Shown here: positions 1,538-35,074 of the stretch, piece by piece
Position numbering within the stretch: position 1 is the first letter of the stretch
How the letters are laid out: each line of letters begins with the position of its first letter
IMG/VR virus record: IMGVR_UViG_2657245570_000017
Span: 1-36,299 of that record
Origin: a virus
Lineage: Duplodnaviria > Heunggongvirae > Uroviricota > Caudoviricetes
Strand: one strand, 5' to 3'
Length of the DNA stretch: 36,299 bases
Position numbers and translations under genes: made by a program
Notes under the pieces: model-generated
What the model saw: the letters and a program-made list of their open reading frames with translations, nothing else
The model's database searches: none
Told to the model about the DNA's origin: nothing

Positions 1538-1825
1538 ATGAGCGAATCAGAGCTTGAGGGGTTCATTCAGGTAGCACCATATCCACTTGAAGCGGTGCCA
1601 TATCAACTATTTGCCAAGATGATTGGTCGCAAAGAATCAACCGTCAGAACCATGATTGACGCTGCAAAGTTACCAACGATTGACTTTGTGAAACCAGGTT
1701 CAGTGAAGACGCGAGCATCAGAAAACTGGGTATATCTGCCAGCATTTAACGCAGGTATGCGCAAAGCGTTTTTTGATCAGCCGAAAGAACGCCGCGATGC
1801 ATGGTTGTTGTGGCTGGGGCTTTAA
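1538..1825 (+). CDS. cox: Cox/Apl-like excisionase and early regulator
   Basis: 95 aa, AGGAG RBS, first gene of the rightward early operon opposite the repressor. Confidence 0.7.
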   Translation: MSESELEGFIQVAPYPLEAVPYQLFAKMIGRKESTVRTMIDAAKLPTIDFVKPGSVKTRASENWVYLPAFNAGMRKAFFDQPKERRDAWLLWLGL

Positions 1826-3898: not shown

Positions 3899-4161
3899 CC
3901 ATTCTGGACTACATCGCTACTCATCCGGGGTGTAGCGGCGGAGAGATCGCCGCAGCACTGAATACTCCAACCACAGCCATTAATGCTGAGTTACGCCAAC
4001 TTTGGCGCGGCGGCTTAGTCATCAGAACAAACCGCAGCACAGGTGGTCGCGCTCGCAAAACAGGAGGCCAGGCTTCTTACCACGTAAACCCGATGCCGTT
4101 CGGGTGTAGCAATCCACTTACTCACATGTTTAACCAGCTACTGAAGGAAGCCAGAGCATGA
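3895..4161 (+). CDS. Putative winged-helix DNA-binding protein
   Basis: 88 aa; MTILDYIATHPGCSGGEIAAALN...LRQLWRGGLV looks like a winged HTH. Confidence 0.5.
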   Translation: MTILDYIATHPGCSGGEIAAALNTPTTAINAELRQLWRGGLVIRTNRSTGGRARKTGGQASYHVNPMPFGCSNPLTHMFNQLLKEARA

Positions 4162-4457
4162 GCACCATCAACCACCAGAAGCTACGCGAACTGGCATTTG
4201 CCCTGCAACGAATGGCAACGCCTCAAAAATTACTGGCATTTCGCGCAATGCTCTCGCCGTCTGCTGTGCTGGCACTGCTGGATGAGCTGGAGCACGCCAG
4301 AACCACGGCTCCTGCCATTCGCCTGACGCTCCATCATGAAATCGCTGATTTCTGCGCGACGTTGGAGGCGCCGGGCGAACCGGAAACGCCGGAAGCAATA
4401 CAGCAAGAGCTGCTGCAACGCATTGACAAGGTTTTTGATTTTTTTCTGAACCAGTAA
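4158..4457 (+). CDS. Hypothetical early protein
   Basis: 99 aa, translationally coupled to the upstream ORF. Confidence 0.5.
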   Translation: MSTINHQKLRELAFALQRMATPQKLLAFRAMLSPSAVLALLDELEHARTTAPAIRLTLHHEIADFCATLEAPGEPETPEAIQQELLQRIDKVFDFFLNQ

Positions 4458-4489
4458 GAAACCAGAACATGCACACACAAAAAAACCGC

Positions 4490-4518
4490 TTGCCATGCCG
4501 CAATCAGTCAGGTTACAT
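4490..4518 (+). promoter_or_regulatory. Candidate sigma70 promoter
   Basis: TTGCCA(4490-4495)-17 nt-TTACAT(4513-4518). Confidence 0.35.
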
Positions 4519-4524
4519 TTCCGC

Positions 4525-4599
4525 TGCACCTCATAAAACGGGTGCCGGGTTTCGCAGCCTGCTGACTAGCAAAGCGCACAACCGCGCCAGCGGTTTTTT
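4525..4599 (+). ncRNA. Candidate small structured RNA (about 75 nt)
   Basis: Between the promoter-like motif and a hairpin plus T7 run (stem 4580-4593, T-run 4593-4599); no RBS-led ORF in this interval. Confidence 0.3.
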
Positions 4600-4779
4600 T
4601 GTGCGTACTGTATTGCCACGTCTTTTTCGCACACGAATTATGGCGGGGCGTACGGGGCCGACTTCGGTCGGGCCGGGTTCTTTGCTAGCCGGTACTGCGA
4701 ACCTCGTACGTCTCGCCACCCACAGTTTCGCAGCTCTGGATGGTGAGTTTTCAAAACTTACTAGCAAAGAGGCCACACC

Positions 4780-5010
4780 ATGGCAAACCGCAAACAGCAC
4801 CGCGCTATCGCGGAGCGTCGTCACATCCAGACTGAAATCGATCGCAGACTCACCCGCGCTGCACACATCGCCTTTATCATGCAATCCAACACATTGCACA
4901 GACTCAACAGCACTATTTCAGCCGACTACTGCGCCGCTGTATTCAGCTATCTGGCGGAAGACCTCCTGTCTCTTCAGGATCTCATCCAGCAGCAAAACAA
5001 ACCCCATTAA
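4780..5010 (+). CDS. Hypothetical basic protein
   Basis: 76 aa; strong RBS AAAGAGG 7 nt upstream of ATG at 4780. Confidence 0.5.
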   Translation: MANRKQHRAIAERRHIQTEIDRRLTRAAHIAFIMQSNTLHRLNSTISADYCAAVFSYLAEDLLSLQDLIQQQNKPH

Positions 5011-5083
5011 TTCCTGTTCCGGGCCTTTCCTGCACCTTGCGGCGGGAGGCCTTCGCACATCTGTAGTAAAGAGGATTGCCGCA

Positions 5084-5449
5084 ATGATTCTCGCCAACGA
5101 CTTTCTTGAATACCTGCTCAACACAGAGCGTGATCTTGCCGTTCGCGTGCGTGAACGTTATGACATGTACCTGAAATCCCTGCCTGTACCGCAGCTCGCT
5201 GACGGAAAATTTGTTATTGATGGTCGCTACATGATTGACAGCCACGAGGGGAATTACAGGCTTTACCGCATTGAAGGCGGCACCCCGTCCGTTATTGGCA
5301 TTTACCAGCGCCCATCCTCTGCGATCGTCGATGTGATTGCCGACAGCATCCGCATCACACACCACCATGCCGACACAGAAGACACTGTGCTGGAGATTCA
5401 GCGGCTGGCTGCCGTTTGCCGTGACACTCTGAATGGTATGACGAAGTAA
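5084..5449 (+). CDS. Hypothetical protein upstream of A
   Basis: 121 aa from ATG at 5084 (AAGAGG RBS); the 326-aa track ORF upstream of this ATG lacks coding signals. Confidence 0.55.
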   Translation: MILANDFLEYLLNTERDLAVRVRERYDMYLKSLPVPQLADGKFVIDGRYMIDSHEGNYRLYRIEGGTPSVIGIYQRPSSAIVDVIADSIRITHHHADTEDTVLEIQRLAAVCRDTLNGMTK

Positions 5450-5455
5450 ATCAGT

Positions 5456-8278
5456 ATGACGACAGAGTACATCAGGGACTGGCAACAACCGCGCCACGCA
5501 GTAGGACGTGAAGGAACGGAGATCCCCGCACCTGAATCCGCGCTTTCCTCATGGCTGGATGCCTACCGGGTAGAGAACGAGCGCCGCCAGGAAATGGCTG
5601 ATGCGGCGTTCTCCGCCACACCGCTGGGCAACCTGATTAATAAAAGCCTGGACGCACAGGAAAAACAGGACAAAACCATCACACTGGCAGGAGACGCCAG
5701 AAAACAGGCACGCGGCGCGGTGGATGAAGCCATGGCCTCGCTGCGCCTGCTGCCGTCCTATCTGCGCGATCCGCTTATTCGCCACCTCTCCTTCCTGCGC
5801 AAAAAACAGGAAGCCGATCGCCGGAAAGGCAAAAAGAGCTGGCAGGCGGAACGCTATGCACGCGGAACCCTGCGCAAAATATTCGAACGTCTGGACCGCA
5901 CCGATCACCGCTGGCTGACACCGGGTTATCGCTCCCTTGCCGGACGCGAACGCCTGGACGATTTGCTTTACCTGCCGCAGCTCAACAAACACCAGATACA
6001 GACGCTGGCCACCATGACGGCGGCGATGTTCAGCAGCACCTTCGAAAAACTCTGCGATGGCTTTGGCGCGACCGATGGCGAGCTGACCATGGATGTAACG
6101 CTGAAGGCGTATCAGATGCTGGCCCGCATGGCGTTACACCTGCACGCCATGCCTCCACATTATGACGCACTGACAACAGACAAAGACCGGAGGAACGAAC
6201 CAGACACGGAGCTGCTGCCGGGCGCAATCCTTCGCCTGACCTGTGCGCAATGGTGGAAACGCAAACTGTGGCTGTTACGTTGCGAGTGGCGGGAAGAACA
6301 ACTCCGCGCCGCCTGTCTGGTTTCCAGAAAAACATCGCCCTATCTGAGCCAGGACGCGTTAAGCGAGTTTCGCGCACAGCGCGAGAAAACACGCGATTTC
6401 CTGAAAAGTTTCATGCTGGAAAATGAAGACGGGTTCACGATTGATCTCGAGACGGTGTATTACGCGGGAGTAAGTAACCCGGTTCACCGTAAGGCAGAAA
6501 TGATGGCCACCATGAAGGGACTGGAACTTCTGGCCGAAGCCCGTGGCGACAGAGCGGTGTTTCTGACTGTCACCTGCCCGTCAAAATATCACGCAACAAC
6601 GGAGAACGGTCATCCGAATCCCAAATGGAACGGGGCCACAATGCGCAACTCCAGCGATTACCTGGTTAACACGTTTTTTGCGGCGGTCCGCAAAAAACTG
6701 AACCGCGACGGTCTTCGCTGGTATGGCATCCGCACGGTGGAGCCTCACCATGACGGTACCGTACACTGGCATATGATGGTCTTTGCACATCCGGAAGAAA
6801 TCGACAGCATCGTGGCCATCACCCGCGATATTGCCATTCAGGAAGACCGCCACGAGCTGGGCAATGATATTACTCCGCGCTTTAAGGCGGAGTATGTCGA
6901 CGGCTCAAAAGGCACACCAACCAGCTATATCGCGACCTACATTGGAAAAAACCTGGACAGCCGCGCCGTGGATGGCATTGACCCGAAAACGGGCAAACCA
7001 CGCGTTGACCACGAAACCGGAAAATCAATGGCCGAGAGCGTGGAGCGCGCCATCGGCTGGGCGCGCCTTCACCGGGTCCGCCAGTTCCAGTTCTTTGGCA
7101 TCCCCTCCCGTCAGGTGTGGCGTGAACTGCGCCGCCTTGCCAGCCAGATGGCACGCAACCCGGAAGGCCCGCAACGACTGAAGGACGACGCAATGGATGC
7201 GGTACTCGCTGCCGCTGATGCCGGGTGTTTTGCCTCCTACATTGAAAAACAGGGTGGCGTACTTGTTCCACGCAAAGACTACCTGATTCGCACCGCCTAC
7301 GACCTCGCAGATGAGCTGAACGATTACGGCGAACAGAGTGTACAGATTTACGGGATCTGGTCGCCGCTCATCGGGGAGTCTTCCCGCGTGTGCACGCACC
7401 CGGATAACTGGAAGCTGGTAAGACGTAAACCGGAAGCGGAAGACAGCGCCCGCGAAAATGGTTTTGACCTTCAGGGCGGCCCTGCCGCCCCTTGGACTCG
7501 TGGCAATAACTGTCCCCGTGTACAGGAAACAGACAACAACGGGACAGAACAGCCGGAAGAACGGCCAGCACCGTGGCCGCAGCTTCCTGACGGCGTTGAC
7601 GTGAACGAATGGGTGCGCTCACTGAAACGGCACGAACGCCGGGCGCTGATGCGTTCGCTGCGTGACAAACAGGCAAAAAACAGCAGTGATGAAATGCAGA
7701 ACTGGACACAGAGCCGCAAACAGCCACAGCCTTTGCCTGATAACCACGAATTACTCGCTAAAGAATGGCGGGAGTCTGCTGAATCTCTCGGCCTGCATAT
7801 CGGTGAACAGCAGATGCAGCACCTGTTACGGGGCGGCAGTCTGTACGTTGACGGCAGCATCATTGCACCGCAGGGATTTGAAATTGTACGCAAACCGGAT
7901 ACCCGACCGGACAGCCGGATCACGCAGCTCTGGCAGCGCCTGAGCCGTAACCACGGCGTAAGCAGCACGGAGATCCGCCATAACCCGGTCGCCAGCTATC
8001 TGGAACAGCTGGGGGCATCAGACCCCGAAGCCGCCGCACGCCTGGCATCCACACTTCAGCAAGACCAGAACACCATGAAAACACCCGTTACCGTGCTTTC
8101 TGACATGCTGCGCGCCATCCGCGACGCAGAGCACGCACAGAGAATCAGTGAAACCACTGAACGCGCCCGCCGCAAAGCAGACCTGCTGCGGGGTGGCCTG
8201 ACCATTGGAAACAAAAAACAGACAGAAACGGGATTCACAAATCCCGTAAATGAGCAAAAAACGCGCCGCGATATATGA
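5456..8278 (+). CDS. A: Replication initiation endonuclease, P2 gpA-like, with long C-terminal extension
   Basis: 940 aa; HUH-type motif VHWHMMVF and paired catalytic tyrosines YIATYIGK; about 180-250 aa longer than the P2 or 186 A proteins as recalled. Confidence 0.85.
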   Translation: MTTEYIRDWQQPRHAVGREGTEIPAPESALSSWLDAYRVENERRQEMADAAFSATPLGNLINKSLDAQEKQDKTITLAGDARKQARGAVDEAMASLRLLPSYLRDPLIRHLSFLRKKQEADRRKGKKSWQAERYARGTLRKIFERLDRTDHRWLTPGYRSLAGRERLDDLLYLPQLNKHQIQTLATMTAAMFSSTFEKLCDGFGATDGELTMDVTLKAYQMLARMALHLHAMPPHYDALTTDKDRRNEPDTELLPGAILRLTCAQWWKRKLWLLRCEWREEQLRAACLVSRKTSPYLSQDALSEFRAQREKTRDFLKSFMLENEDGFTIDLETVYYAGVSNPVHRKAEMMATMKGLELLAEARGDRAVFLTVTCPSKYHATTENGHPNPKWNGATMRNSSDYLVNTFFAAVRKKLNRDGLRWYGIRTVEPHHDGTVHWHMMVFAHPEEIDSIVAITRDIAIQEDRHELGNDITPRFKAEYVDGSKGTPTSYIATYIGKNLDSRAVDGIDPKTGKPRVDHETGKSMAESVERAIGWARLHRVRQFQFFGIPSRQVWRELRRLASQMARNPEGPQRLKDDAMDAVLAAADAGCFASYIEKQGGVLVPRKDYLIRTAYDLADELNDYGEQSVQIYGIWSPLIGESSRVCTHPDNWKLVRRKPEAEDSARENGFDLQGGPAAPWTRGNNCPRVQETDNNGTEQPEERPAPWPQLPDGVDVNEWVRSLKRHERRALMRSLRDKQAKNSSDEMQNWTQSRKQPQPLPDNHELLAKEWRESAESLGLHIGEQQMQHLLRGGSLYVDGSIIAPQGFEIVRKPDTRPDSRITQLWQRLSRNHGVSSTEIRHNPVASYLEQLGASDPEAAARLASTLQQDQNTMKTPVTVLSDMLRAIRDAEHAQRISETTERARRKADLLRGGLTIGNKKQTETGFTNPVNEQKTRRDI
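8228..8247. promoter_or_regulatory. Palindrome 1, ACGGGATT-N4-AATCCCGT
   Basis: Perfect 8-bp inverted arms; lies in the 3' end of A, 127 bp upstream of the parM-like start. Confidence 0.5.
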
Positions 8279-8354: not shown

Positions 8355-9314
8355 ATGAAAATTTGTATCGATGACGGCTCCACCAACATCAAGCTGGCAT
8401 GGACTGAGAACGGCGAACGCCGCAACGCCATCAGCCCGAACAGCTTCAAGTCGGAATGGTCTGCGCCGTTCGGTGGCACGCAGCCCGCGAACTACATGCT
8501 TGATGGCGTGCGCTATGGTTTTGATCCGGTCAGCGATCGCTTTGTCCAGACGACCGACACGCAATACCAGTACAGCGATGTGAATGTCATTGCCATTCAT
8601 CACGCGCTGGTCAAATCAGGCATCACACCACAGGAAGTGGATGTGGTTGTCACCCTGCCACTGAGCGAATATTTCGACACAAACGCACAGCCGGACATGG
8701 CCAACATCAACCGCAAAAAAGCAAACGTCATGCGCCCGGTGGCGTACCAGAACGGAAAAGCATTCACTATCCGTAACGTACGGGTTATGCCTGAATCCAT
8801 TCCGGCTGGTTTTAAAGCACTGGCTGACATGAGTCCGTTTGAATCCCTGCTGATTGTGGATTTAGGCGGAACCACGCTGGATGTGGCAAAGGTTCAGGGA
8901 CAACTGGCAGGTATCAGCCAGGTGTTTTGCGATCCACACGTAGGCGTTTCCCTGATGGCCGATGCCGTACTGTCGGTGATGGCCACTAACGGTATGCGCA
9001 CCAGTCACCACATCGCCAATACCATTATCGAACATCGCCATGATGAAGCCTGGCTGCGCCAGCACATCCACAATGACGCGCATTACGCCAGCCTGATGGC
9101 GGTTATTCGTGAAAAGGAAGAAACACTGAAACAACGCGTGATCCGCGCGCTGGCGGTTTTTTCGGGTTACGGGCGGGTGATGGTTGTCGGTGGCGGGGCG
9201 GAGATTGTGGCACCCGCTATCCGCGAAGCCTGCGGAGTTAATGCGACTTTCATCGCGGACGGGGTGCCACAATTTGCTCTGGTTAATGGGCTGTACGCAA
9301 TGAACAAGGAGTAA
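8355..9314 (+). CDS. parM: Actin-like segregation ATPase, ParM/StbA family
   Basis: 319 aa; MKICIDDGSTNIKLAW, ISPNSFK, YSDVNVIAIHHAL, MPESIPAG, LIVDLGGTTLD, VVGGGAE and LVNGLY are collinear with R1 ParM as recalled; AAGGA RBS. Confidence 0.8.
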   Translation: MKICIDDGSTNIKLAWTENGERRNAISPNSFKSEWSAPFGGTQPANYMLDGVRYGFDPVSDRFVQTTDTQYQYSDVNVIAIHHALVKSGITPQEVDVVVTLPLSEYFDTNAQPDMANINRKKANVMRPVAYQNGKAFTIRNVRVMPESIPAGFKALADMSPFESLLIVDLGGTTLDVAKVQGQLAGISQVFCDPHVGVSLMADAVLSVMATNGMRTSHHIANTIIEHRHDEAWLRQHIHNDAHYASLMAVIREKEETLKQRVIRALAVFSGYGRVMVVGGGAEIVAPAIREACGVNATFIADGVPQFALVNGLYAMNKE

Positions 9315-9318
9315 ACCA

Positions 9319-9630
9319 ATGACGACACCAACCAGAAGAATAAGTTTCTATCTGAAGCCAGCTGCCGTCAAGAACGAAGGAGAAGCATGCGCCTGGCTGG
9401 ACAGTCTTACACCAGAAGCCCGCAAAAGCGGCCAACGCGTGGCTTTTCTGGCCGGGCTGGCACTTCTGAAGACGAATCCGGCAGAGGCTTACCGACTGGC
9501 CGCATGGGCTGATGATGAGATGTTACCTGTGACACAAATCAGCTCAAAAAAGTTTGAAGCACAGTCTGCACCAGTGGCTAAGATAACCAGCCAGATGGCT
9601 GGGAATATCCGGGCGTTATTTCCTGAGTAA
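9319..9630 (+). CDS. ParR/StbB-like centromere-binding adaptor (putative)
   Basis: 103 aa, 4 bp after the parM-like gene, AAGGAG RBS; N-terminal region ISFYLKP...RVAFLAGLALLK resembles ParR; sits at the parR position. Confidence 0.5.
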   Translation: MTTPTRRISFYLKPAAVKNEGEACAWLDSLTPEARKSGQRVAFLAGLALLKTNPAEAYRLAAWADDEMLPVTQISSKKFEAQSAPVAKITSQMAGNIRALFPE

Positions 9631-21434: not shown

Positions 21435-22035
21435 TTCACTGTTACCACCATCAGCCAGCAATTTCATGCGTTGTGCCGAAGCCGTCGGAACACGCATTAC
21501 AGACATTCCGGTAGACCTCAACACGCTGTGGTCGCCGGACACCTGCCCGGTGCATCTGCTGCCTTATCTCGCCTGGGCGTTTTCCGTTGACCGCTGGGAT
21601 CGCAACTGGCCGGAAGAGACAAAGCGACAGGTAATTCGTGATGCATGGCTGATACACCGACACAAAGGGACCATCAGCGCACTGCGAAGAGCCGTGGAGC
21701 CTCTCGGTTACCTGATTGAAGTAAAGGAGTGGTGGCAACTCAACGAGGAGCCGGGAACATTTCGCATTGTTGTCGGAGTACTTGATCAGGGCATCACCGA
21801 TGAAATGTATCAGGAACTTGAGCGCCTTATTGCGGATGCAAAACCAGTAAGTCGCCATCTGACGGGGCTGGCGATCAGCCTGAGTGTGAACGGAAAGATT
21901 TTCGTTGGTACGGGATGCTATCACGGCGATGCCCTGACGGTTTATCCCTACACCCCGGAGTCCATTATTGTCGAAGGGGATTATTTCCCTGCCCCGGCCA
22001 TTCATTTAATTGATAATCTGAGAGTAAACGCATGA
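21427..22035 (+). CDS. I: Baseplate protein, gpI-like
   Basis: ATG at 21427, 202 aa. Confidence 0.75.
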   Translation: MSNSLLPPSASNFMRCAEAVGTRITDIPVDLNTLWSPDTCPVHLLPYLAWAFSVDRWDRNWPEETKRQVIRDAWLIHRHKGTISALRRAVEPLGYLIEVKEWWQLNEEPGTFRIVVGVLDQGITDEMYQELERLIADAKPVSRHLTGLAISLSVNGKIFVGTGCYHGDALTVYPYTPESIIVEGDYFPAPAIHLIDNLRVNA

Positions 22036-23627
22036 CAGTGAAATACTACGCCATTCTGACTAATCAGGGCGCAGCACGACTGGCTAACGCGACGATGCTC
22101 GGCAGTAAGCTGAATCTGACGCAAATGGCCGTTGGTGATGCAAATGGTGTGTTACCAACACCAGACCCTGCACAAACAAAACTGATTAACCAGAAACGCA
22201 TTGCACCGCTGAATCTTCTGAGTGTTGACCCTAACAATCAGAGCCAGATTATTGCGGAGCAAATCATCCCTGAAAACGAGGGAGGATTCTGGATCCGTGA
22301 GATTGGTCTTTATGATGATGAAGGTGTACTCATTGCGGTGGCAAACTGCCCGGAAACGTACAAACCGCAGTTGCAGGAAGGCAGTGGACGCACCCAGACT
22401 ATCCGCATGATTCTGGTTGTCACGAACACCGAAGCCATCACGCTGAAAATCGACCCGTCTGTGGTTCTGGCAACCCGCAAATATGTGGATGATAAAATCT
22501 CAGAGCACGAACAGTCACGACGTCACCCAGACGCCTCGCTGACCGTAAAAGGTTTTACTCAGTTAAGCAGTGCAATTAACAGTGAATCAGAAACACTGGC
22601 CGCAACACCGAAAGCGGTTAAGGCTGCATATGACCTGGCTAACGAGAAATATACCGCCCAGAACGCCACCACTACACAAAAAGGGATTGTTCAGCTCAGT
22701 AGCGCCACGAACAGCACGTCTGAAACACTGGCAGCGACACCAAAAGCTGTTAAGGCGGTAATGGATGAAACGAACAAGAAAGCACCATTAAACAGCCCGG
22801 CACTGACCGGAACGCCAACAACACCAACAGCGGCACAGGGGACTAATAGTACCCAGATCGCAAGCACGGCTTTCGTTATGGCCGCGATTGCCGCACTTGT
22901 AGACTCGTCACCTGATGCACTGAACACGCTGAACGAACTGGCTGCGGCGCTGGGCAATGACCCGAATTTTGCGACCACCATGACTAACGCGCTTGCGGGT
23001 AAGCAACCGAAGGATGCCACCCTGACTGCGCTGGCGGAGCTTGCTACATCAGCAGATAAACTCCCATATTTTACAGGGGCAGATCGTGCCGCGTTAACCG
23101 CGTTGACAAGTGTTGGACGTGCCATTCTTGGCAAAACCAGCACTCAGGGAGTTCTTGATTACCTTGGTTTGGGGGAAGGCTCTGCACTGCCCGTTGGTGT
23201 ACCTGTTCCATGGCCCTCAGCCACGCCGCCAACGGGGTGGCTGAAATGTAACGGCGCAGCATTTTCTTCTGAAATGTATCCCAGACTGGCAATGGCTTAC
23301 CCCACCAATAAATTACCAGACTTACGCGGTGAATTTATCCGTGGCTGGGATGATGGGCGCGGGGTGGATGCCGGAAGGGTCATCTTAAGCATGCAGGGGT
23401 GGTTAACAGGAAGTCATTATCATAATATTCGGTCATGGGATGCGTGGGATAACACGGTACTGGTGCCAAATGACAAAGGCGGGGATAGTCTGTTGTCGAC
23501 AGATAACGCCGTCCGGCAAGGTGCAATTAACGGTAGATTTACCAGTCAATACAGAACGGAATCCTCAGAGGGGAATGAAACCCGCCCACGCAATATTGCC
23601 TTCAATTATATTGTGAGAACCGCATAA
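22032..23627 (+). CDS. H: Tail fibre protein, gpH-like (constant region plus currently expressed variable cassette)
   Basis: 531 aa; tandem SETLAATPKAVKA repeats; collar-like GWLKCNGAAFS...LPDLRGEFIRGWDDGRG; C-terminus ETRPRNIAFNYIVRTA. Confidence 0.9.
   Translation: MTVKYYAILTNQGAARLANATMLGSKLNLTQMAVGDANGVLPTPDPAQTKLINQKRIAPLNLLSVDPNNQSQIIAEQIIPENEGGFWIREIGLYDDEGVLIAVANCPETYKPQLQEGSGRTQTIRMILVVTNTEAITLKIDPSVVLATRKYVDDKISEHEQSRRHPDASLTVKGFTQLSSAINSESETLAATPKAVKAAYDLANEKYTAQNATTTQKGIVQLSSATNSTSETLAATPKAVKAVMDETNKKAPLNSPALTGTPTTPTAAQGTNSTQIASTAFVMAAIAALVDSSPDALNTLNELAAALGNDPNFATTMTNALAGKQPKDATLTALAELATSADKLPYFTGADRAALTALTSVGRAILGKTSTQGVLDYLGLGEGSALPVGVPVPWPSATPPTGWLKCNGAAFSSEMYPRLAMAYPTNKLPDLRGEFIRGWDDGRGVDAGRVILSMQGWLTGSHYHNIRSWDAWDNTVLVPNDKGGDSLLSTDNAVRQGAINGRFTSQYRTESSEGNETRPRNIAFNYIVRTA
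23152..23177. other. hix/gix-like recombination site S1 inside H
   Basis: TTCTTGATTACC-TT-GGTTTGGGGGAA; left half matches hixL TTCTTGAAAACC at 10 of 12 as recalled; right half identical to the cassette sites. Confidence 0.6.
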
Positions 23628-24238
23628 TGAATAACGCGATATTAAATGATGACCTTATTGCCGTACAGGCAGGAAACATCGTCGTTTATAACTATGATGG
23701 TGAGACACGGGAATATATTTCCGAATCAACTGAATATCTTGCTGCGGGTGTCGGTATTCCGGCAAATTCCTGTTTAGATGCCCCGGGCGCACATAAAGCG
23801 GGCTATGCTATCCGCCGTTCGGAGAATTTAAATTCATGGGAGTATACGCCAGATCATCGTGGTGAAACCGTCTATAACACTGACACGGGAAACACCGAAG
23901 AAATCACGACGCTAGGTGACTACCCGAAAAATACAACCACTATCTCCCCGTCAACACCATACGATAAATGGGATGGTGAAAAATGGGTGACAGATACTGA
24001 GGCACAACATAGTGCCGCAGTAGAAGCGGCAGAAACCAAGCGCCAGTCACTGGCTGATGCGGCAATGGCTTCCATAAGTCTGATTCAGTTGAAGTTGCAG
24101 GCCGGGCGGAAGTTGACGCAGGCAGAAACCACCCGGCTTAACGCCGTGCTGGATTATATAGACGCGCTGAACGCAATGGATATAAACATGGCACCAGATA
24201 TCAACTTGCCGGAAATACCACTGGCAGCAGCCAGTTGA
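23627..24238 (+). CDS. G: Tail fibre assembly chaperone, Tfa/gpG-like
   Basis: 203 aa; start overlaps the H stop; conserved Tfa-type C-terminus LNAVLDYIDALNAMDINMAPDINLPEIP. Confidence 0.8.
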   Translation: MNNAILNDDLIAVQAGNIVVYNYDGETREYISESTEYLAAGVGIPANSCLDAPGAHKAGYAIRRSENLNSWEYTPDHRGETVYNTDTGNTEEITTLGDYPKNTTTISPSTPYDKWDGEKWVTDTEAQHSAAVEAAETKRQSLADAAMASISLIQLKLQAGRKLTQAETTRLNAVLDYIDALNAMDINMAPDINLPEIPLAAAS

Positions 24239-24244
24239 ATATAA

Positions 24245-24712
24245 CTAAGCCGCCCTCACGATATAGTTAAATGCAATATTGCGGGGGCGGGTTTCACTAC
24301 CACCTGTGTTACCAATACTTCCTCGTGAATGAAGCGTTGGTGATGGAATCAAACTCCCTCCTGTATTTGTGGCATCAAGCCCCCTGCCTTGTGTATATGT
24401 TTTTTTGAAAATCGTGGCCAACTCCCATTCATCCTTTGTGTCATATCCATCGTTAGCTACAACAATATGGCGGTGTTTTTCCAACATCCCGGTTTGAATG
24501 CTCAATAAAGCGCGTGCTGCATCAATTCCTCGCCCATCATCCCAGCCACGAATAAATTCGCCCCGTAAATCCGGTAATTTATTGGTGGGGTAGGCTTTTG
24601 CCAGATTGGGGTACATTTCAGAAGAAAATGCTGCGCCGTTACATTTCAGCCAGCCCGTTGGTGGTGTTGCTAAGGGCCACGGAACGGGCACACCAACGGG
24701 CAGTGCAGAGCC
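24245..24712 (-). other. Silent tail-fibre C-terminal cassette (5'-truncated, promoterless)
   Basis: Encodes GLGEGSALPVGVPVPWP...collar motif...variable tip...ETRPRNIAFNYIVRAA; homologous to the 3' third of H. Confidence 0.8.
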
Positions 24713-24738
24713 TTCTCCTAAACCAACGTTTTCATGCT
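24713..24738. other. hix-like site S2
   Basis: TTCTCCTAAACC-AA-CGTTTTCATGCT, inverted relative to S1; contains the stop codon of the next cassette. Confidence 0.6.
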
Positions 24739-25229
24739 GCTCTTACGATGTAATTAAACGCAATGTTGCGTGGGCGGTTTTCGTTTGCAGTTGGAACAAT
24801 TCTTGAAGCATCAAGGCCAATCACTTTTGGGTAAACAGTGCCATCTGTTCTTTCAGTCACCATACTTCTGATTAAGGAGAAATAACTATTGTTCGTTGAG
24901 GGACTCAAAGGCACCACTGCCCCCTTAAATGAGCCTACTGATTCCCATATTGAATAATTTTCGGTGTTTACAGTCTTGAACTCACCATAGATATTACGTA
25001 TGGCATCACCTTGAGCGGATAATATTGTTCTCCCCGCATCCACACCACGTCCGTCATCCCAACCACGGATAAATTCACCGCGTAAATCCGGTAATTTATT
25101 GGTGGGATAAGCCTTTGCCAGTTTTGGGTACTTTTCAGAAGAAAATGCTGCTCCGTTGCATTTCAGCCATCCCGTTGGCGGTGTTTCTAAGGGCCACGGA
25201 ACGGGTACACCAACGGGCAGTGCAGAGCC
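24732..25229 (-). other. Silent tail-fibre C-terminal cassette
   Basis: Same conserved N- and C-terminal segments with a different central region. Confidence 0.8.
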
Positions 25230-25255
25230 TTCCCCCAAACCAACGTTTTCATGCT
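25230..25255. other. hix-like site S3
   Basis: TTCCCCCAAACC-AA-CGTTTTCATGCT. Confidence 0.6.
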
Positions 25256-25707
25256 GCCCTTACGATGTAATTAAACGCAATGTTATGGGGGCGTGTTTCA
25301 GATGCTGTGCGAACTGAGCGAGAGGCGTCGAATGTCCATACAGAAGCACCATATCCTTCAATGATCTCAGTTGGTTGTAAGCCTACTGATAATATAGAGT
25401 CAGTTTGACTAAATGGTCCTGAATTAAGCGCATCTTTAAAAAGCTGAGTACGCCCAAAAGTGCCAACTATATTCTGAATAGCGTCAGACTGTGCAGACAG
25501 TAGGTTGCGCCCATTATCAACGCCCCGTCCGTCATCCCAGCCGCGAATAAATTCGCCCCGTAAATCCGGTAATTTATTGGTGGGGTAGGCCTTTGCCAGA
25601 TTGGGGTACATTTCAGAAGAAAATGCTGCGCCGTTACATTTCAGCCACCCCGTTGGCGGCGTGGCTGAGGGCCATGGAACGGGCACACCAACGGGCAGCG
25701 CAGAGCC
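25249..25707 (-). other. Silent tail-fibre C-terminal cassette
   Basis: Third variant; the ORF-track N-terminal extension beyond the site is read-through of non-coding sequence. Confidence 0.8.
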
Positions 25708-25733
25708 TTCCCCCAAACCAACGTTTTCGTCTT
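25708..25733. other. hix-like site S4
   Basis: TTCCCCCAAACC-AA-CGTTTTCGTCTT, 55 bp upstream of the invertase start. Confidence 0.6.
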
Positions 25734-25787
25734 TATCCCTACCTATACCAACTATGTATTTTTCACGAAACAAAAAGGATGTTTTTT

Positions 25788-26387
25788 ATGCAAATTGGCT
25801 ATATTCGTGTGTCAACAAATGACCAGAACACGGATTTACAACGCAATGCACTGAACTGCGCAGGATGTGAACTGATTTTTGAAGATAAAATCAGCGGAAC
25901 GAAATCAGCCAGACCGGGATTGAAAAAACTGCTCAGAACGCTATCAGAAGGAGATACGCTGGTTGTCTGGAAGCTGGACAGACTGGGCAGAAGTATGAAA
26001 CACCTGATCACGCTTATTGAGGAATTGCGGAAAAAAGGTGTTAATTTCCGTAGTCTGACGGACAGCATTGACACATCAACACCCATGGGGCGTTTCTTTT
26101 TTCACGTCATGGGGGCTTTAGCCGAAATGGAACGTGAATTAATTGTAGAGCGTACACTGGCCGGGCTGGCAGCAGCACGCGCACAAGGACGCATTGGCGG
26201 ACGTCGCCCGAAGTTGACAAAAGAACAACACGAGCAAATAGCGAGGCTGATTAAAAACGGTCATGACAGGAAACAACTGGCGATCATTTACGACATCGGC
26301 ATATCGACGATTTATCGTTATCACCCTGTAGGCGATATACAGGCTGAAGAAACAACCAGGCAGACTCAGGAAAATGAAAACCGCTAA
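25788..26387 (+). CDS. Serine DNA invertase, Hin/Gin/Cin/Pin family
   Basis: 199 aa from ATG at 25788; GYIRVSTNDQ (catalytic Ser), TLVVWKLDRLGRS, MGRFFFHVMGALAEMERELIVERT and a C-terminal HTH match Hin as recalled. Confidence 0.9.
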   Translation: MQIGYIRVSTNDQNTDLQRNALNCAGCELIFEDKISGTKSARPGLKKLLRTLSEGDTLVVWKLDRLGRSMKHLITLIEELRKKGVNFRSLTDSIDTSTPMGRFFFHVMGALAEMERELIVERTLAGLAAARAQGRIGGRRPKLTKEQHEQIARLIKNGHDRKQLAIIYDIGISTIYRYHPVGDIQAEETTRQTQENENR

Positions 26388-33298: not shown

Positions 33299-33559
33299 AT
33301 GTTCCGTTGTCCGCTTTGTGGCGCATCTGCCCGTATCCGCACCAGTCGTTCGGAAAATGATTCAAACACCGTACGGAAAAAATATTACCAGTGTAACAAC
33401 CTGGAATGCGGCGTATGCTTCTCAACACTGGAAGCCTTCCATAAATTCACATCAAAACACGCCTCCGGCGTTCACTCTTCAGAAGGTATCCCGTGGCATG
33501 AGCTGCCAGCTTCACACAGGGGAAACAATCAGATGAGTTTGCCTTTACCTCAGAATTAA
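33299..33559 (+). CDS. ogr: Ogr/Delta-type zinc-finger late transcription activator
   Basis: MFRCPLCG...YYQCNNLECGVCF, a C2-C2 finger resembling P2 Ogr MFHCPLC...YHQCQNVNC as recalled. Confidence 0.8.
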   Translation: MFRCPLCGASARIRTSRSENDSNTVRKKYYQCNNLECGVCFSTLEAFHKFTSKHASGVHSSEGIPWHELPASHRGNNQMSLPLPQN

Positions 33560-34140: not shown

Positions 34141-34338
34141 ATGACGCAAAATGTACGATGCAAAAATTGCAACAAACTACTTGCCCGCGCCTCATTTCAC
34201 TACATTGAAATAAAATGTCCGCGCTGCAAAACACTTAACCAGATAACGAGAGCCATCGAGCACCCCACACACATGAGGAGTTATGACCGTGGGGATCGCA
34301 ATCCGGCACCAACCAGCACATACACCGGAACACACTAA
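34141..34338 (+). CDS. com: Com-like zinc-finger translational activator
   Basis: 65 aa from ATG at 34141 (AAGAGG RBS); CKNCNKLL...IEIKCPRCK matches Mu Com CKNCNKLL...IEIRCPRCK as recalled; overlaps the downstream gene start. Confidence 0.75.
   Translation: MTQNVRCKNCNKLLARASFHYIEIKCPRCKTLNQITRAIEHPTHMRSYDRGDRNPAPTSTYTGTH
34263..34294 (+). promoter_or_regulatory. Stem sequestering the methyltransferase RBS and start codon
   Basis: CCCCAC (34263-34268) pairs with GTGGGG (34289-34294), enclosing GAGGAG and ATG 34283. Confidence 0.5.
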
Positions 34339-35074
34339 GGTTTATCAGACTGACAATGCCACGCTCTGTCGTGGGAATGCACTGGAAATATTGCCGCTGA
34401 TTGAGCCAGAAAGTATTGATGCCTTAATCACTGACCCGCCTTACAGTTCGGGCGCGACACACAAGGCCGGACGCACCAACCAGGGCAGCCACGCAAAATA
34501 TCTGAACGGCGAGAACCTTCATCGCTTTGATGGGTTTGCGGGTGAAAACATGGATGCCCGTTCGTGGGCTTACTGGACACAATTATGGATGGCACAGGCA
34601 CACCGCGCAGTCAGGCCGGGCGGTTATGCCCTGGTATTTACTGACTGGCGACAACTGCCAGCTTTAACCGATGCGTTTCAGGCCAGCGGTTTTACATGGC
34701 GTGGAATCATTGCGTGGAACAAAGGAAGGGGGTCACGAACACCCCATACGGGGTATTTCCGGCATCAGTGCGAATACATCGTCTGGGGCAGTAAAGGCCA
34801 TTTAGGTAAATCGCCTTCGGGACCGTTCGACGGCTGCATGACGTTCCCGGTTATCCCATCAAAGAAAATGCACCCGACCGGAAAACCAGAAGAACTTATG
34901 GCAGAACTGGTCAGGACTGCGAATAGTGGTGGAACAGTCCTTGATCCTTTTATGGGATCGGGAACAACGGGTGTTGCAGCACTAAAAGCAGGACGCAAAT
35001 TTATTGGTATAGAAACCAGTGATCATTATTTTGATGTAGCAACACAACGGCTCAAAACGGCGATCGAACCATAA
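34283..35074 (+). CDS. DNA methyltransferase (N6-adenine/N4-cytosine, beta class)
   Basis: 263 aa; DPPY motif (ITDPPYSS) precedes the AdoMet motif DPFMGSGTTG; alternative GTG start at 34289. Confidence 0.85.
   Translation: MTVGIAIRHQPAHTPEHTKVYQTDNATLCRGNALEILPLIEPESIDALITDPPYSSGATHKAGRTNQGSHAKYLNGENLHRFDGFAGENMDARSWAYWTQLWMAQAHRAVRPGGYALVFTDWRQLPALTDAFQASGFTWRGIIAWNKGRGSRTPHTGYFRHQCEYIVWGSKGHLGKSPSGPFDGCMTFPVIPSKKMHPTGKPEELMAELVRTANSGGTVLDPFMGSGTTGVAALKAGRKFIGIETSDHYFDVATQRLKTAIEP

Follow-up and report, generated by a model that had tools for sequence, protein, structure and literature searches.

A probable P4/P1-type antisense-RNA immunity module in the early operon of a P88-group, P2-like Escherichia coli prophage

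The virus record IMGVR_UViG_2657245570_000017, analyzed here over its whole length of 36,299 nucleotides (nt) and referred to as the window, is a P2-like Escherichia coli prophage of the P88 group (genus Xuanwuvirus). Its rightward early operon follows the cox region and ends with the replication gene A and a ParM partition pair. Within this operon, between a gene resembling Ead/Ea22 and a 76-codon gene that we call eps76, lies an interval (positions 4469 to 4780) that we consider a probable antisense-RNA immunity module of the kind found in phages P4 and P1, in which a C4 RNA would silence eps76, the reading frame orf121, and gene A, and in which translation driven by the early promoter Pe would override the silencing. 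Judged by their sequences, the repeats and hairpins that a preliminary description had listed here are parts of one known device, made up of an isrK leader, a C4 antisense RNA, and the targets of that RNA. The same description had called the interval an apparently non-coding island and a candidate small RNA or cis element. It does encode phage small RNAs, belonging to the Rfam families isrK and C4, but these lie within a conserved reading frame of the eta or "Ash" type.

The upstream element matches the isrK family (Rfam RF01394) at 65.5 bits against a threshold of 50, and consists of stem 1, a stem 2 bearing the target a1, a single-stranded target b1, and an intrinsic terminator. Ahead of it, a promoter scan found a sigma-70-like promoter that would be the counterpart of the P4 promoter PLE. 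Its -35 hexamer is TTGCCA (4490-4495), and its -10 hexamer is either TTACAT (4513-4518, 17-nt spacer), the arrangement originally noted, or TACATT (4514-4519, 18-nt spacer). The predicted transcription start, at about 4526, is the first base of the isrK model, and both hexamers of this predicted promoter are invariant across 18 P88-like loci in the wider alignment. The hairpin followed by a T7 run that had been pointed out earlier is the predicted isrK terminator: a terminator scan places there a 6-base-pair (bp) stem with a GCCA loop (AACCGC-GCCA-GCGGTT) and the run of seven T residues, both part of the isrK model and both invariant in relatives. From promoter to T-run terminator the element measures 75 nt, in agreement with the transcript of roughly that length anticipated in the preliminary description. 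Hfq binding would be expected of a member of the isrK/P4 seqA class.

A permissive scan added only a weak match to the c4-a1b1 motif (Rfam RF03163) at 4513-4565, at 20.5 bits and below the gathering threshold of 46.7; P4 itself scores 44.1 bits on this model, just under that threshold. The assignment of a1 and b1 functions is supported by the covariation described below and not by this model. We also considered a second promoter directly ahead of C4 (TTGCCA at 4613-4618, a 17-nt spacer, and AATTAT) and rejected it. The two promoter-like matches in the region are close to the 1.0 ± 1.0 expected by chance, and the -35 of the would-be second promoter is not conserved, roughly half of the relatives having TCGCCA or TCGTCA instead. 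A passage of PMC10111431 likewise describes the P4 CI RNA as processed from the PLE transcript, which counts against a separate C4 promoter.

The larger C4 RNA had been missed in the preliminary description, which recognized the short element and did not see the repeats as antisense and target pairs. The C4 match (Rfam RF01695) scores 82.8 bits against a threshold of 45 and is full length, covering model positions 1 to 87. Its architecture is a 17-bp outer stem around two hairpins, the first of which is the GC-rich hairpin with a UUCG loop (GGCCGACTTCGGTCGG, 4656-4671) that the preliminary description had correctly picked out. The minimum-energy fold is identical to the family consensus and is far more stable than that of shuffled sequence (z = -4.77). 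A member of the C4 class would be expected to yield a stable RNA of about 77 to 80 nt, cut from a longer transcript with RNase P acting at the 5' end, and to repress in trans.

This RNA would present two antisense elements, b' in the 12-nt loop of its second hairpin and a' in a single-stranded junction, and exact complements of 7 to 10 nt stand on both sides of it (Table 1). For a', these are the TTCGCAG copy (4551-4557) of the CTGCGAA/TTCGCAG inverted repeat described earlier, of which CTGCGAA (4695-4701) is a' itself, together with a further, previously unlisted copy of TTCGCAG at 4727-4733. For b', they fall on the repeat ACTAGCAAAG, which does occur twice as claimed, at 4565-4574 and 4760-4769, each one base higher than first given. 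The downstream target b2 overlaps the Shine-Dalgarno sequence AAAGAGG (4766-4772) of eps76, which ends 7 nt before the ATG at 4780. The motif CTAGCAAAG or its complement occurs three times in the window, always within the same 204 nt, against an expectation of 0.16. TTCGCAG is not enriched across the window (9 found, 7 expected); its significance lies in position and covariation. The predicted pairing of IsrK with C4 is an extended duplex of -56.9 kcal/mol.

Comparison with relatives gives direct evidence that the repeats act as partners in RNA-RNA pairing. We scanned viral contigs for the pattern of the C4 core and obtained 120 stretches; with the window and four annotated phage loci, these gave a non-redundant set of 111 contexts whose flanks were long enough to examine. 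Perfect complements (7 nt or longer) were present upstream for b1 in 66% and for a1 in 89% of these contexts, and downstream for b2 in 78% and for a2 in 87%, compared with 5 to 9% in a mismatched control that set the loops of one locus against the flanks of another. We then aligned window positions 4526 to 4776 with the corresponding segments of 17 relatives sharing its gene order, giving a P88-like set of 18 contexts. The backbone of this alignment is 91% identical, with little or no change in its stems and terminator; the differences fall mainly in the six a/b cassettes and compensate one another there. Of the cells counted, 100% are paired for a' with a2 (four pairs changed on both sides), a' with a1 (four), and b' with b1 (seven), and 96% for b' with b2 (six). 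The observed covariation score was not matched by any of 500 shuffles, and in slid controls about 40% of cells are paired. The helices of C4 itself are paired in 100% of cells, with two outer-stem pairs changed on both sides and the inner hairpins invariant. The preliminary description had proposed covariance across related prophages as a check, and here the hairpins are kept and the cassettes change together. The 18 loci carry 11 a'/b' combinations in which a' and b' are reassorted, and which look like a set of specificities; the P88 cassette, for example, has GTTCTGTAGTTG as b' and TGTGGAAA as a'.

Table 1. Positions of the module and of surrounding genes in the window
Feature	Position	Strand	Remarks
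Integrase	1-1020	minus	Left end of prophage
P2 C-type repressor	1102-1440	minus	35% identity to P2 C, E 6e-20
cox	1538-1825		Left end of prophage
Ead/Ea22-like gene	4158-4457		Left neighbor of interval
eta/"Ash"-like frame-A open reading frame	4469-5449	+	326 codons, from open reading frame list; eta-like part 4469-5083
Predicted internal promoter	4490-4519	+	TTGCCA-18-TACATT
IsrK/seqA-like leader RNA	4526-4600	+	75 nt
a1 target	4551-4557	+	TTCGCAG, inside isrK; complement of a'
b1 target	4566-4574	+	CTAGCAAAG, inside isrK; complement of b'
Predicted intrinsic terminator of short RNA	4580-4600	+	
C4/CI-type antisense RNA	4636-4723	+	
b' antisense element	4679-4688	+	TCTTTGCTAG
a' antisense element	4695-4701	+	CTGCGAA
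a2 target, seqC-like site	4727-4733	+	TTCGCAG; complement of a'
b2 target	4761-4770	+	CTAGCAAAGA; complement of b'
eps76	4780-5010	+	76 codons; right neighbor of interval; first gene under proposed C4 control
orf121	5084-5449	+	phrog_3237, function unknown; downstream of switch
Replication gene A	5456-8278	+	Nicking endonuclease; Pfam Phage_GPA, E 3.9e-130
ParM actin-like partition ATPase	8355-9314		Directly 3' of gene A
Plasmid_stab_B protein	9319-9630		Next to ParM

The preliminary description had seen no convincing open reading frame (ORF) in the interval, yet one of 326 codons spans it, in a frame (here frame A) that is open in relatives as well. Its ATG at 4469 lies 12 nt past the stop of the Ead/Ea22-like gene and upstream of the -35 hexamer at 4490. 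Of 99 loci, 81 to 90% keep frame A free of stops through leader, C4, and targets, compared with 6 to 26% for the other two frames. Within 60 distinct a'/b' cassettes we counted 1, 20, and 28 stop trinucleotides in frames A, B, and C, respectively, so stops in frame A are avoided even where the sequence is free to vary. The pattern continues in the overlap with eps76, where all 17 eps76 variants have zero frame-A stops and the third frame has one to five; by synonymous resampling, the probability of zero frame-A stops is 0.007 to 0.39 per variant. In most relatives frame A ends in a TGA that overlaps the ATG of orf121 (ATGA). The window and one relative, L035, have a 1-nt insertion near 5065-5069 that brings frame A and orf121 into one continuous frame, hence the length of 326 codons here. 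Both arrangements would bring ribosomes from 4469 to orf121.

Several further features bear on what this frame is for. A conserved AUG at 4640, at the 5' edge of C4, lies in frame A. Frame A of P4 and of lambdoid phages runs on into the gene that follows b2, which is kil or encodes a protein with a Kil-like N terminus. The P88-like phages have eps76 in this place, in another frame, yet frame A stays open across it; a nested in-frame restart of the kil type after b2 is absent here, the ATG at 4780 being in another frame. We infer that frame A is selected for ribosome transit, as in P4 eta, and not for a folded protein. Matches to the Pfam family Phage_ASH (PF10554) overlie conserved RNA genes in both phages, namely isrK and C4 in the window (4469-4793) and CI in P4 (NC_001609, 8168-8584), and such matches may flag an RNA immunity module instead of a folded protein domain.

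By sequence similarity, the product of the first gene downstream of the targets, eps76, is homologous to epsilon, the protein of P4 that derepresses its helper. The two proteins align in BLASTP at E 3e-8 with 29% identity, and a profile-profile comparison gives 89% probability (E 2.3e-6). All 8 eps76 variants match the Pfam family Derepression (PF25738), at best with E 4.6e-8, and the RefSeq label of the P88 copy is "derepression protein." Identity of eps76 among P88-like loci ranges from 56 to 99%, making it far more variable than orf121 and gene A, which are mostly 94 to 99% identical where orf121 is present; gene A is 51 to 89% identical in six loci. We also considered that each eps76 might be matched to its own C repressor. 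This idea is unsupported: the eps76 type does not track the C-repressor type among P88-like loci, and in L035 an eps76 of 99% identity occurs together with a C of only 33% identity.

Analysis of P4 (NC_001609) with the same tools recovers the same elements. Its known CI RNA is a C4 match (74.9 bits), its seqA leader is an isrK match (60.8 bits), and the old "cI protein" ORF over the CI RNA matches Phage_ASH at 59.7 bits. The equivalences of IsrK with seqA and of C4 with CI are stated in PMC3632133 and PMC4825925. The order and the spacing agree. Both phages have a leader carrying a1 and b1 with a T-run terminator, a predicted one in the window, then an antisense RNA (CI or C4) carrying b' and a', then a2 followed by a b2 that covers a Shine-Dalgarno sequence, which belongs to kil in P4 and to eps76 in the window. 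The promoter reads TTGCCT-18-TATAGT in P4 and TTGCCA-18-TACATT in the window, at the same position relative to isrK. In both, frame A is open through the RNAs and an epsilon-family gene and a replication gene lie downstream. The gene under b2 is followed by epsilon and then the replication gene in P4, and by orf121 and then gene A in the window. The differences are also clear. P4 is a satellite, whereas the window is a complete phage of the P2-like helper type. The eta ATG of P4 overlaps the stop of the upstream gene, before PLE, whereas the long ORF of the window starts at 4469; the upstream promoter is PLL in P4 and the C-repressed early promoter Pe in the window; the replication gene encodes the alpha primase in P4 and a P2-type A protein in the window; and the a/b specificities of the two differ. 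Finally, the gene under b2 is kil in P4, but in the window it is the epsilon homologue, out of frame with the eta-like ORF and fully overlapped by it.

The C4 RNAs of P1 and P7 (c4 of the icd-ant, immI region) belong to the same Rfam family. The logic in P1 is that proposed here: a' and b' pair with a2 and b2, the site masked at b2 being the ribosome-binding site of the next gene, which precedes an anti-repressor function; the specificity variants of P1 and P7 likewise arise by compensatory change. To our knowledge, P1 has no leader that matches the isrK model and carries its own terminator. The regulated protein is Ant in P1 and an epsilon-like protein in the window, where the module sits inside the early replication operon. 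Details of the P1 and P7 systems are supported by a table in PMC12197685. The isrK-orf45-anrP region of the Salmonella prophage Gifsy-1 shares with the window an RNA of the isrK family, with a short terminated small RNA and a read-through mRNA that are predicted in the window, a small ORF that starts where the RNA region after isrK has its 5' edge, and, farther downstream, a gene for an anti-repressor (PMC4825925), a putative one in the window. Gifsy-1 differs in being lambdoid, in having a large AnrP-type anti-repressor as the downstream gene, and in having no replication gene downstream. In the early region of P2 itself we detected neither isrK nor C4; because P2 lacks both, the module is an accessory of the P88 group and not a general P2 feature.

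Taken together, these comparisons suggest how the module may work. As in P4, P1, and Gifsy-1, the internal promoter would give rise to the 75-nt IsrK/seqA-like RNA ending at the terminator, and a C4/CI RNA would be cut out of transcripts that read through. The exposed b' and a' would then pair with a1 and b1 in the leader and with a2 and b2 downstream. By analogy with P4 and P1, pairing at b2 would block translation of eps76, the untranslated transcript would terminate before orf121 and gene A, and an anti-repressor-like protein and replication would thus be kept silent in the lysogen. Gene A is likely to be the final target of this control, as the same analogy suggests. When Pe fires, ribosomes starting at the ATG at 4469 would translate through isrK, C4, and the targets to orf121, and, on the model of P4 eta, this translation would prevent terminator formation, Rho loading, and C4 pairing. 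A transcriptional attenuator ahead of the replication gene was among the functions first suggested for the interval, and because of the homology to the P4 immunity region, termination control at that place is the most likely function. For P4, the relevant passage of PMC10111431, which summarizes Forti et al. 1999, reports that transcripts from the internal constitutive promoter end early through RNA interactions at CI and seqA. According to that passage, CI is processed from these transcripts, Kil is made only on read-through, and the upstream promoter alone allows full-length Eta to be translated, in coupling with the upstream gene; this translation prevents termination.

Several points weigh against this immunity reading. 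Each functional step is carried over from P4, P1, or Gifsy-1 by analogy. Unlike kil in P4, eps76 is out of frame with the eta-like ORF, which leaves its expression from Pe transcripts uncertain, and the short IsrK RNA of Gifsy-1 activates its downstream gene in trans (PMC4825925), which makes the sign of any IsrK effect here uncertain. Some of the scores are also modest: the isrK segment folds no more stably than shuffled sequence to any remarkable degree (z = -0.68), the Phage_ASH match of frame A (residues 16 to 108, E 1.1e-4) scores 23.0 bits, under the cut-off of 26, and the window's own eps76 reaches 22 bits on PF25738, under the cut-off of 27. Lastly, the Xuanwuvirus phage 520873 (L002, NC_049344) is without the sequence corresponding to window 4167-4971, so the module is not essential. 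In this phage a clean deletion (locus positions 1199-1225) has fused the opening codons of the Ead/Ea22-like gene with the 3'-terminal part of the epsilon-like gene, removing isrK, C4, and most of eps76; the module is thus dispensable or has been lost in some lineages.

How widespread is the module? A megablast search with window 4458-5010 found it in 1282 of 5426 complete E. coli genomes (about 24%), in up to four copies per genome, almost all of them chromosomal. The E. coli lysogen GF66.2 is 99.8% identical to the window in this region. In public records this stretch of about 320 bp is left blank or is marked as an "ash family protein" pseudogene, and the annotations over matched stretches are confined to hypothetical protein, "ash family protein," or derepression protein. 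No RNA feature is annotated at the module in the two RefSeq records that we examined. The RNA families, the pairing logic, and the eta-type override are all known already; we did not find their presence in P88-group P2-like phages described, and our literature search returned no paper tying C4 or IsrK to P2-like phages or Xuanwuvirus.

Could the elements serve some other end? One possibility, which we hold as a tentative and lesser one, is a positive switch like that of Gifsy-1, where the isrK family was defined, the mechanism was shown, and a stable RNA, STnc1160, is made downstream of isrK (PMC4825925). The long transcript would be silent until IsrK acting in trans opened it or titrated C4, allowing translation of eps76 or of the ORF beginning at AUG 4640; the epsilon-like anti-repressor might then inactivate the P2 C-type repressor and cause LexA-independent induction. 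The predicted IsrK-C4 duplex and the position of that AUG, in frame A at the edge of C4, are in keeping with such a switch, as is the C protein of the window, a homologue of P2 C and so the kind of protein on which P4 epsilon acts. The inducibility of P88 with mitomycin C and the spontaneous activity of phiSM (PMC5285337, PMC6456863) also speak for it. Against it stand the failure of eps76 type to follow C type, as in L035, and the fact that P4, the closest relative in architecture, uses the same elements to repress. The positive switch is compatible with the immunity reading, and both could coexist. We think it rather improbable that the module is instead a device for cross-immunity or against satellites, in which C4 would act in trans to shut the replication operons of incoming P4-like satellites or of matching phages. 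A related idea has been raised for lambdoid prophages (PMC3632133), and the frequency of the module in E. coli and the hypervariable, reshuffled a' and b' elements (11 combinations in 18 loci) fit the pattern expected of immunity specificities. However, the 20 combinations in the P4-like satellites sampled have nothing in common with the 11 of the P88-like loci, neither a whole combination nor an individual a' or b' variant, and in the P4 model translated transcripts from the upstream promoter escape C4.

Two further explanations fare worse. That the interval is an ordinary protein-coding gene for an "Ash family protein," with incidental matches to RNA families, is very unlikely, even though an ORF spans the region with its stops avoided, matches Phage_ASH and PHROG families labeled "transcriptional regulator" weakly, and has been placed in some RefSeq records as an "ash family protein" pseudogene. 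Covariation between sites 100 to 200 nt apart cannot stem from protein constraint, both RNA models score well above threshold, the homologous ORF of P4 overlies the CI RNA, and the passage of frame A through eps76 in an alternative frame suits ribosome transit better than a folded protein. A replication origin or protein-binding site, also among the first suggestions, draws solely on the presence of repeats and hairpins near a replication gene, and we give it hardly any credence. All the repeats can be assigned to RNA stems or to antisense and target pairs with compensatory change, the P2 nick site is annotated inside gene A, and an iteron-like array is absent.

The remainder of the window holds several other features. 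No tRNA or tmRNA was found in it by ARAGORN, and NCBIfam gave zero matches for eps76, orf121, the eta-like translation, and the Ead/Ea22-like gene. The ParM and Plasmid_stab_B genes after gene A, in a phage that also has an integrase, suggest that persistence as a plasmid is possible. After a tail-fiber gene (22032-23627) and the gene for its assembly (23627-24238) come three alternative cassettes with Collar domains, encoded on the opposite strand (24245-24691, 24732-25238, and 25249-25773). Each cassette forms an inverted repeat of 209 to 240 nt with 23156-23395 (84 to 90% complementary), and a serine invertase (Resolvase and HTH_7 domains) is encoded within 25593-26387; the stretch from 22032 to 26387 looks like an invertible multi-cassette tail-fiber switch of the Gin/Cin/Min type. 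Toward its right end, the prophage encodes an ogr-like late activator (33299-33559) and, downstream of it, a DNA methylase (N6_N4_Mtase, 34283-35074).

Naming these elements correctly ties the P88-group prophages to a well-studied RNA switch. It also places the P4 regulatory cassette, including its epsilon-type derepression gene, in P2-like phages, which bears on the exchange of parts between helpers and satellites. The compensatory a/b variants amount to a natural collection of orthogonal RNA-RNA address pairs. For annotation, the N-terminal part of Phage_ASH corresponds to translation across conserved RNA genes, and protein-family matches of this sort are to be read cautiously. P2-like prophages are classically non-inducible, and the shared cassette bears on how they may be switched on.

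More speculatively, and with rather low confidence, P88-group phages may use this P4-like seqA-CI-seqC-epsilon cassette as an RNA-gated anti-repressor switch set by the ratio of IsrK to C4, in which the epsilon-like protein would hit the phage's own C repressor or those of other P2-like prophages, the a/b cassettes would be private addresses, and the frame would be kept open for ribosomes. If this is true, action of the epsilon-like protein on its own C would provide LexA-independent induction, and action on other resident P2-like prophages would provide cross-induction. The reshuffled a/b cassettes would keep co-resident copies of the module from interfering with one another, and a reading frame that overlaps another gene would be held free of stops for one purpose, to let ribosomes take transcription past the switch.

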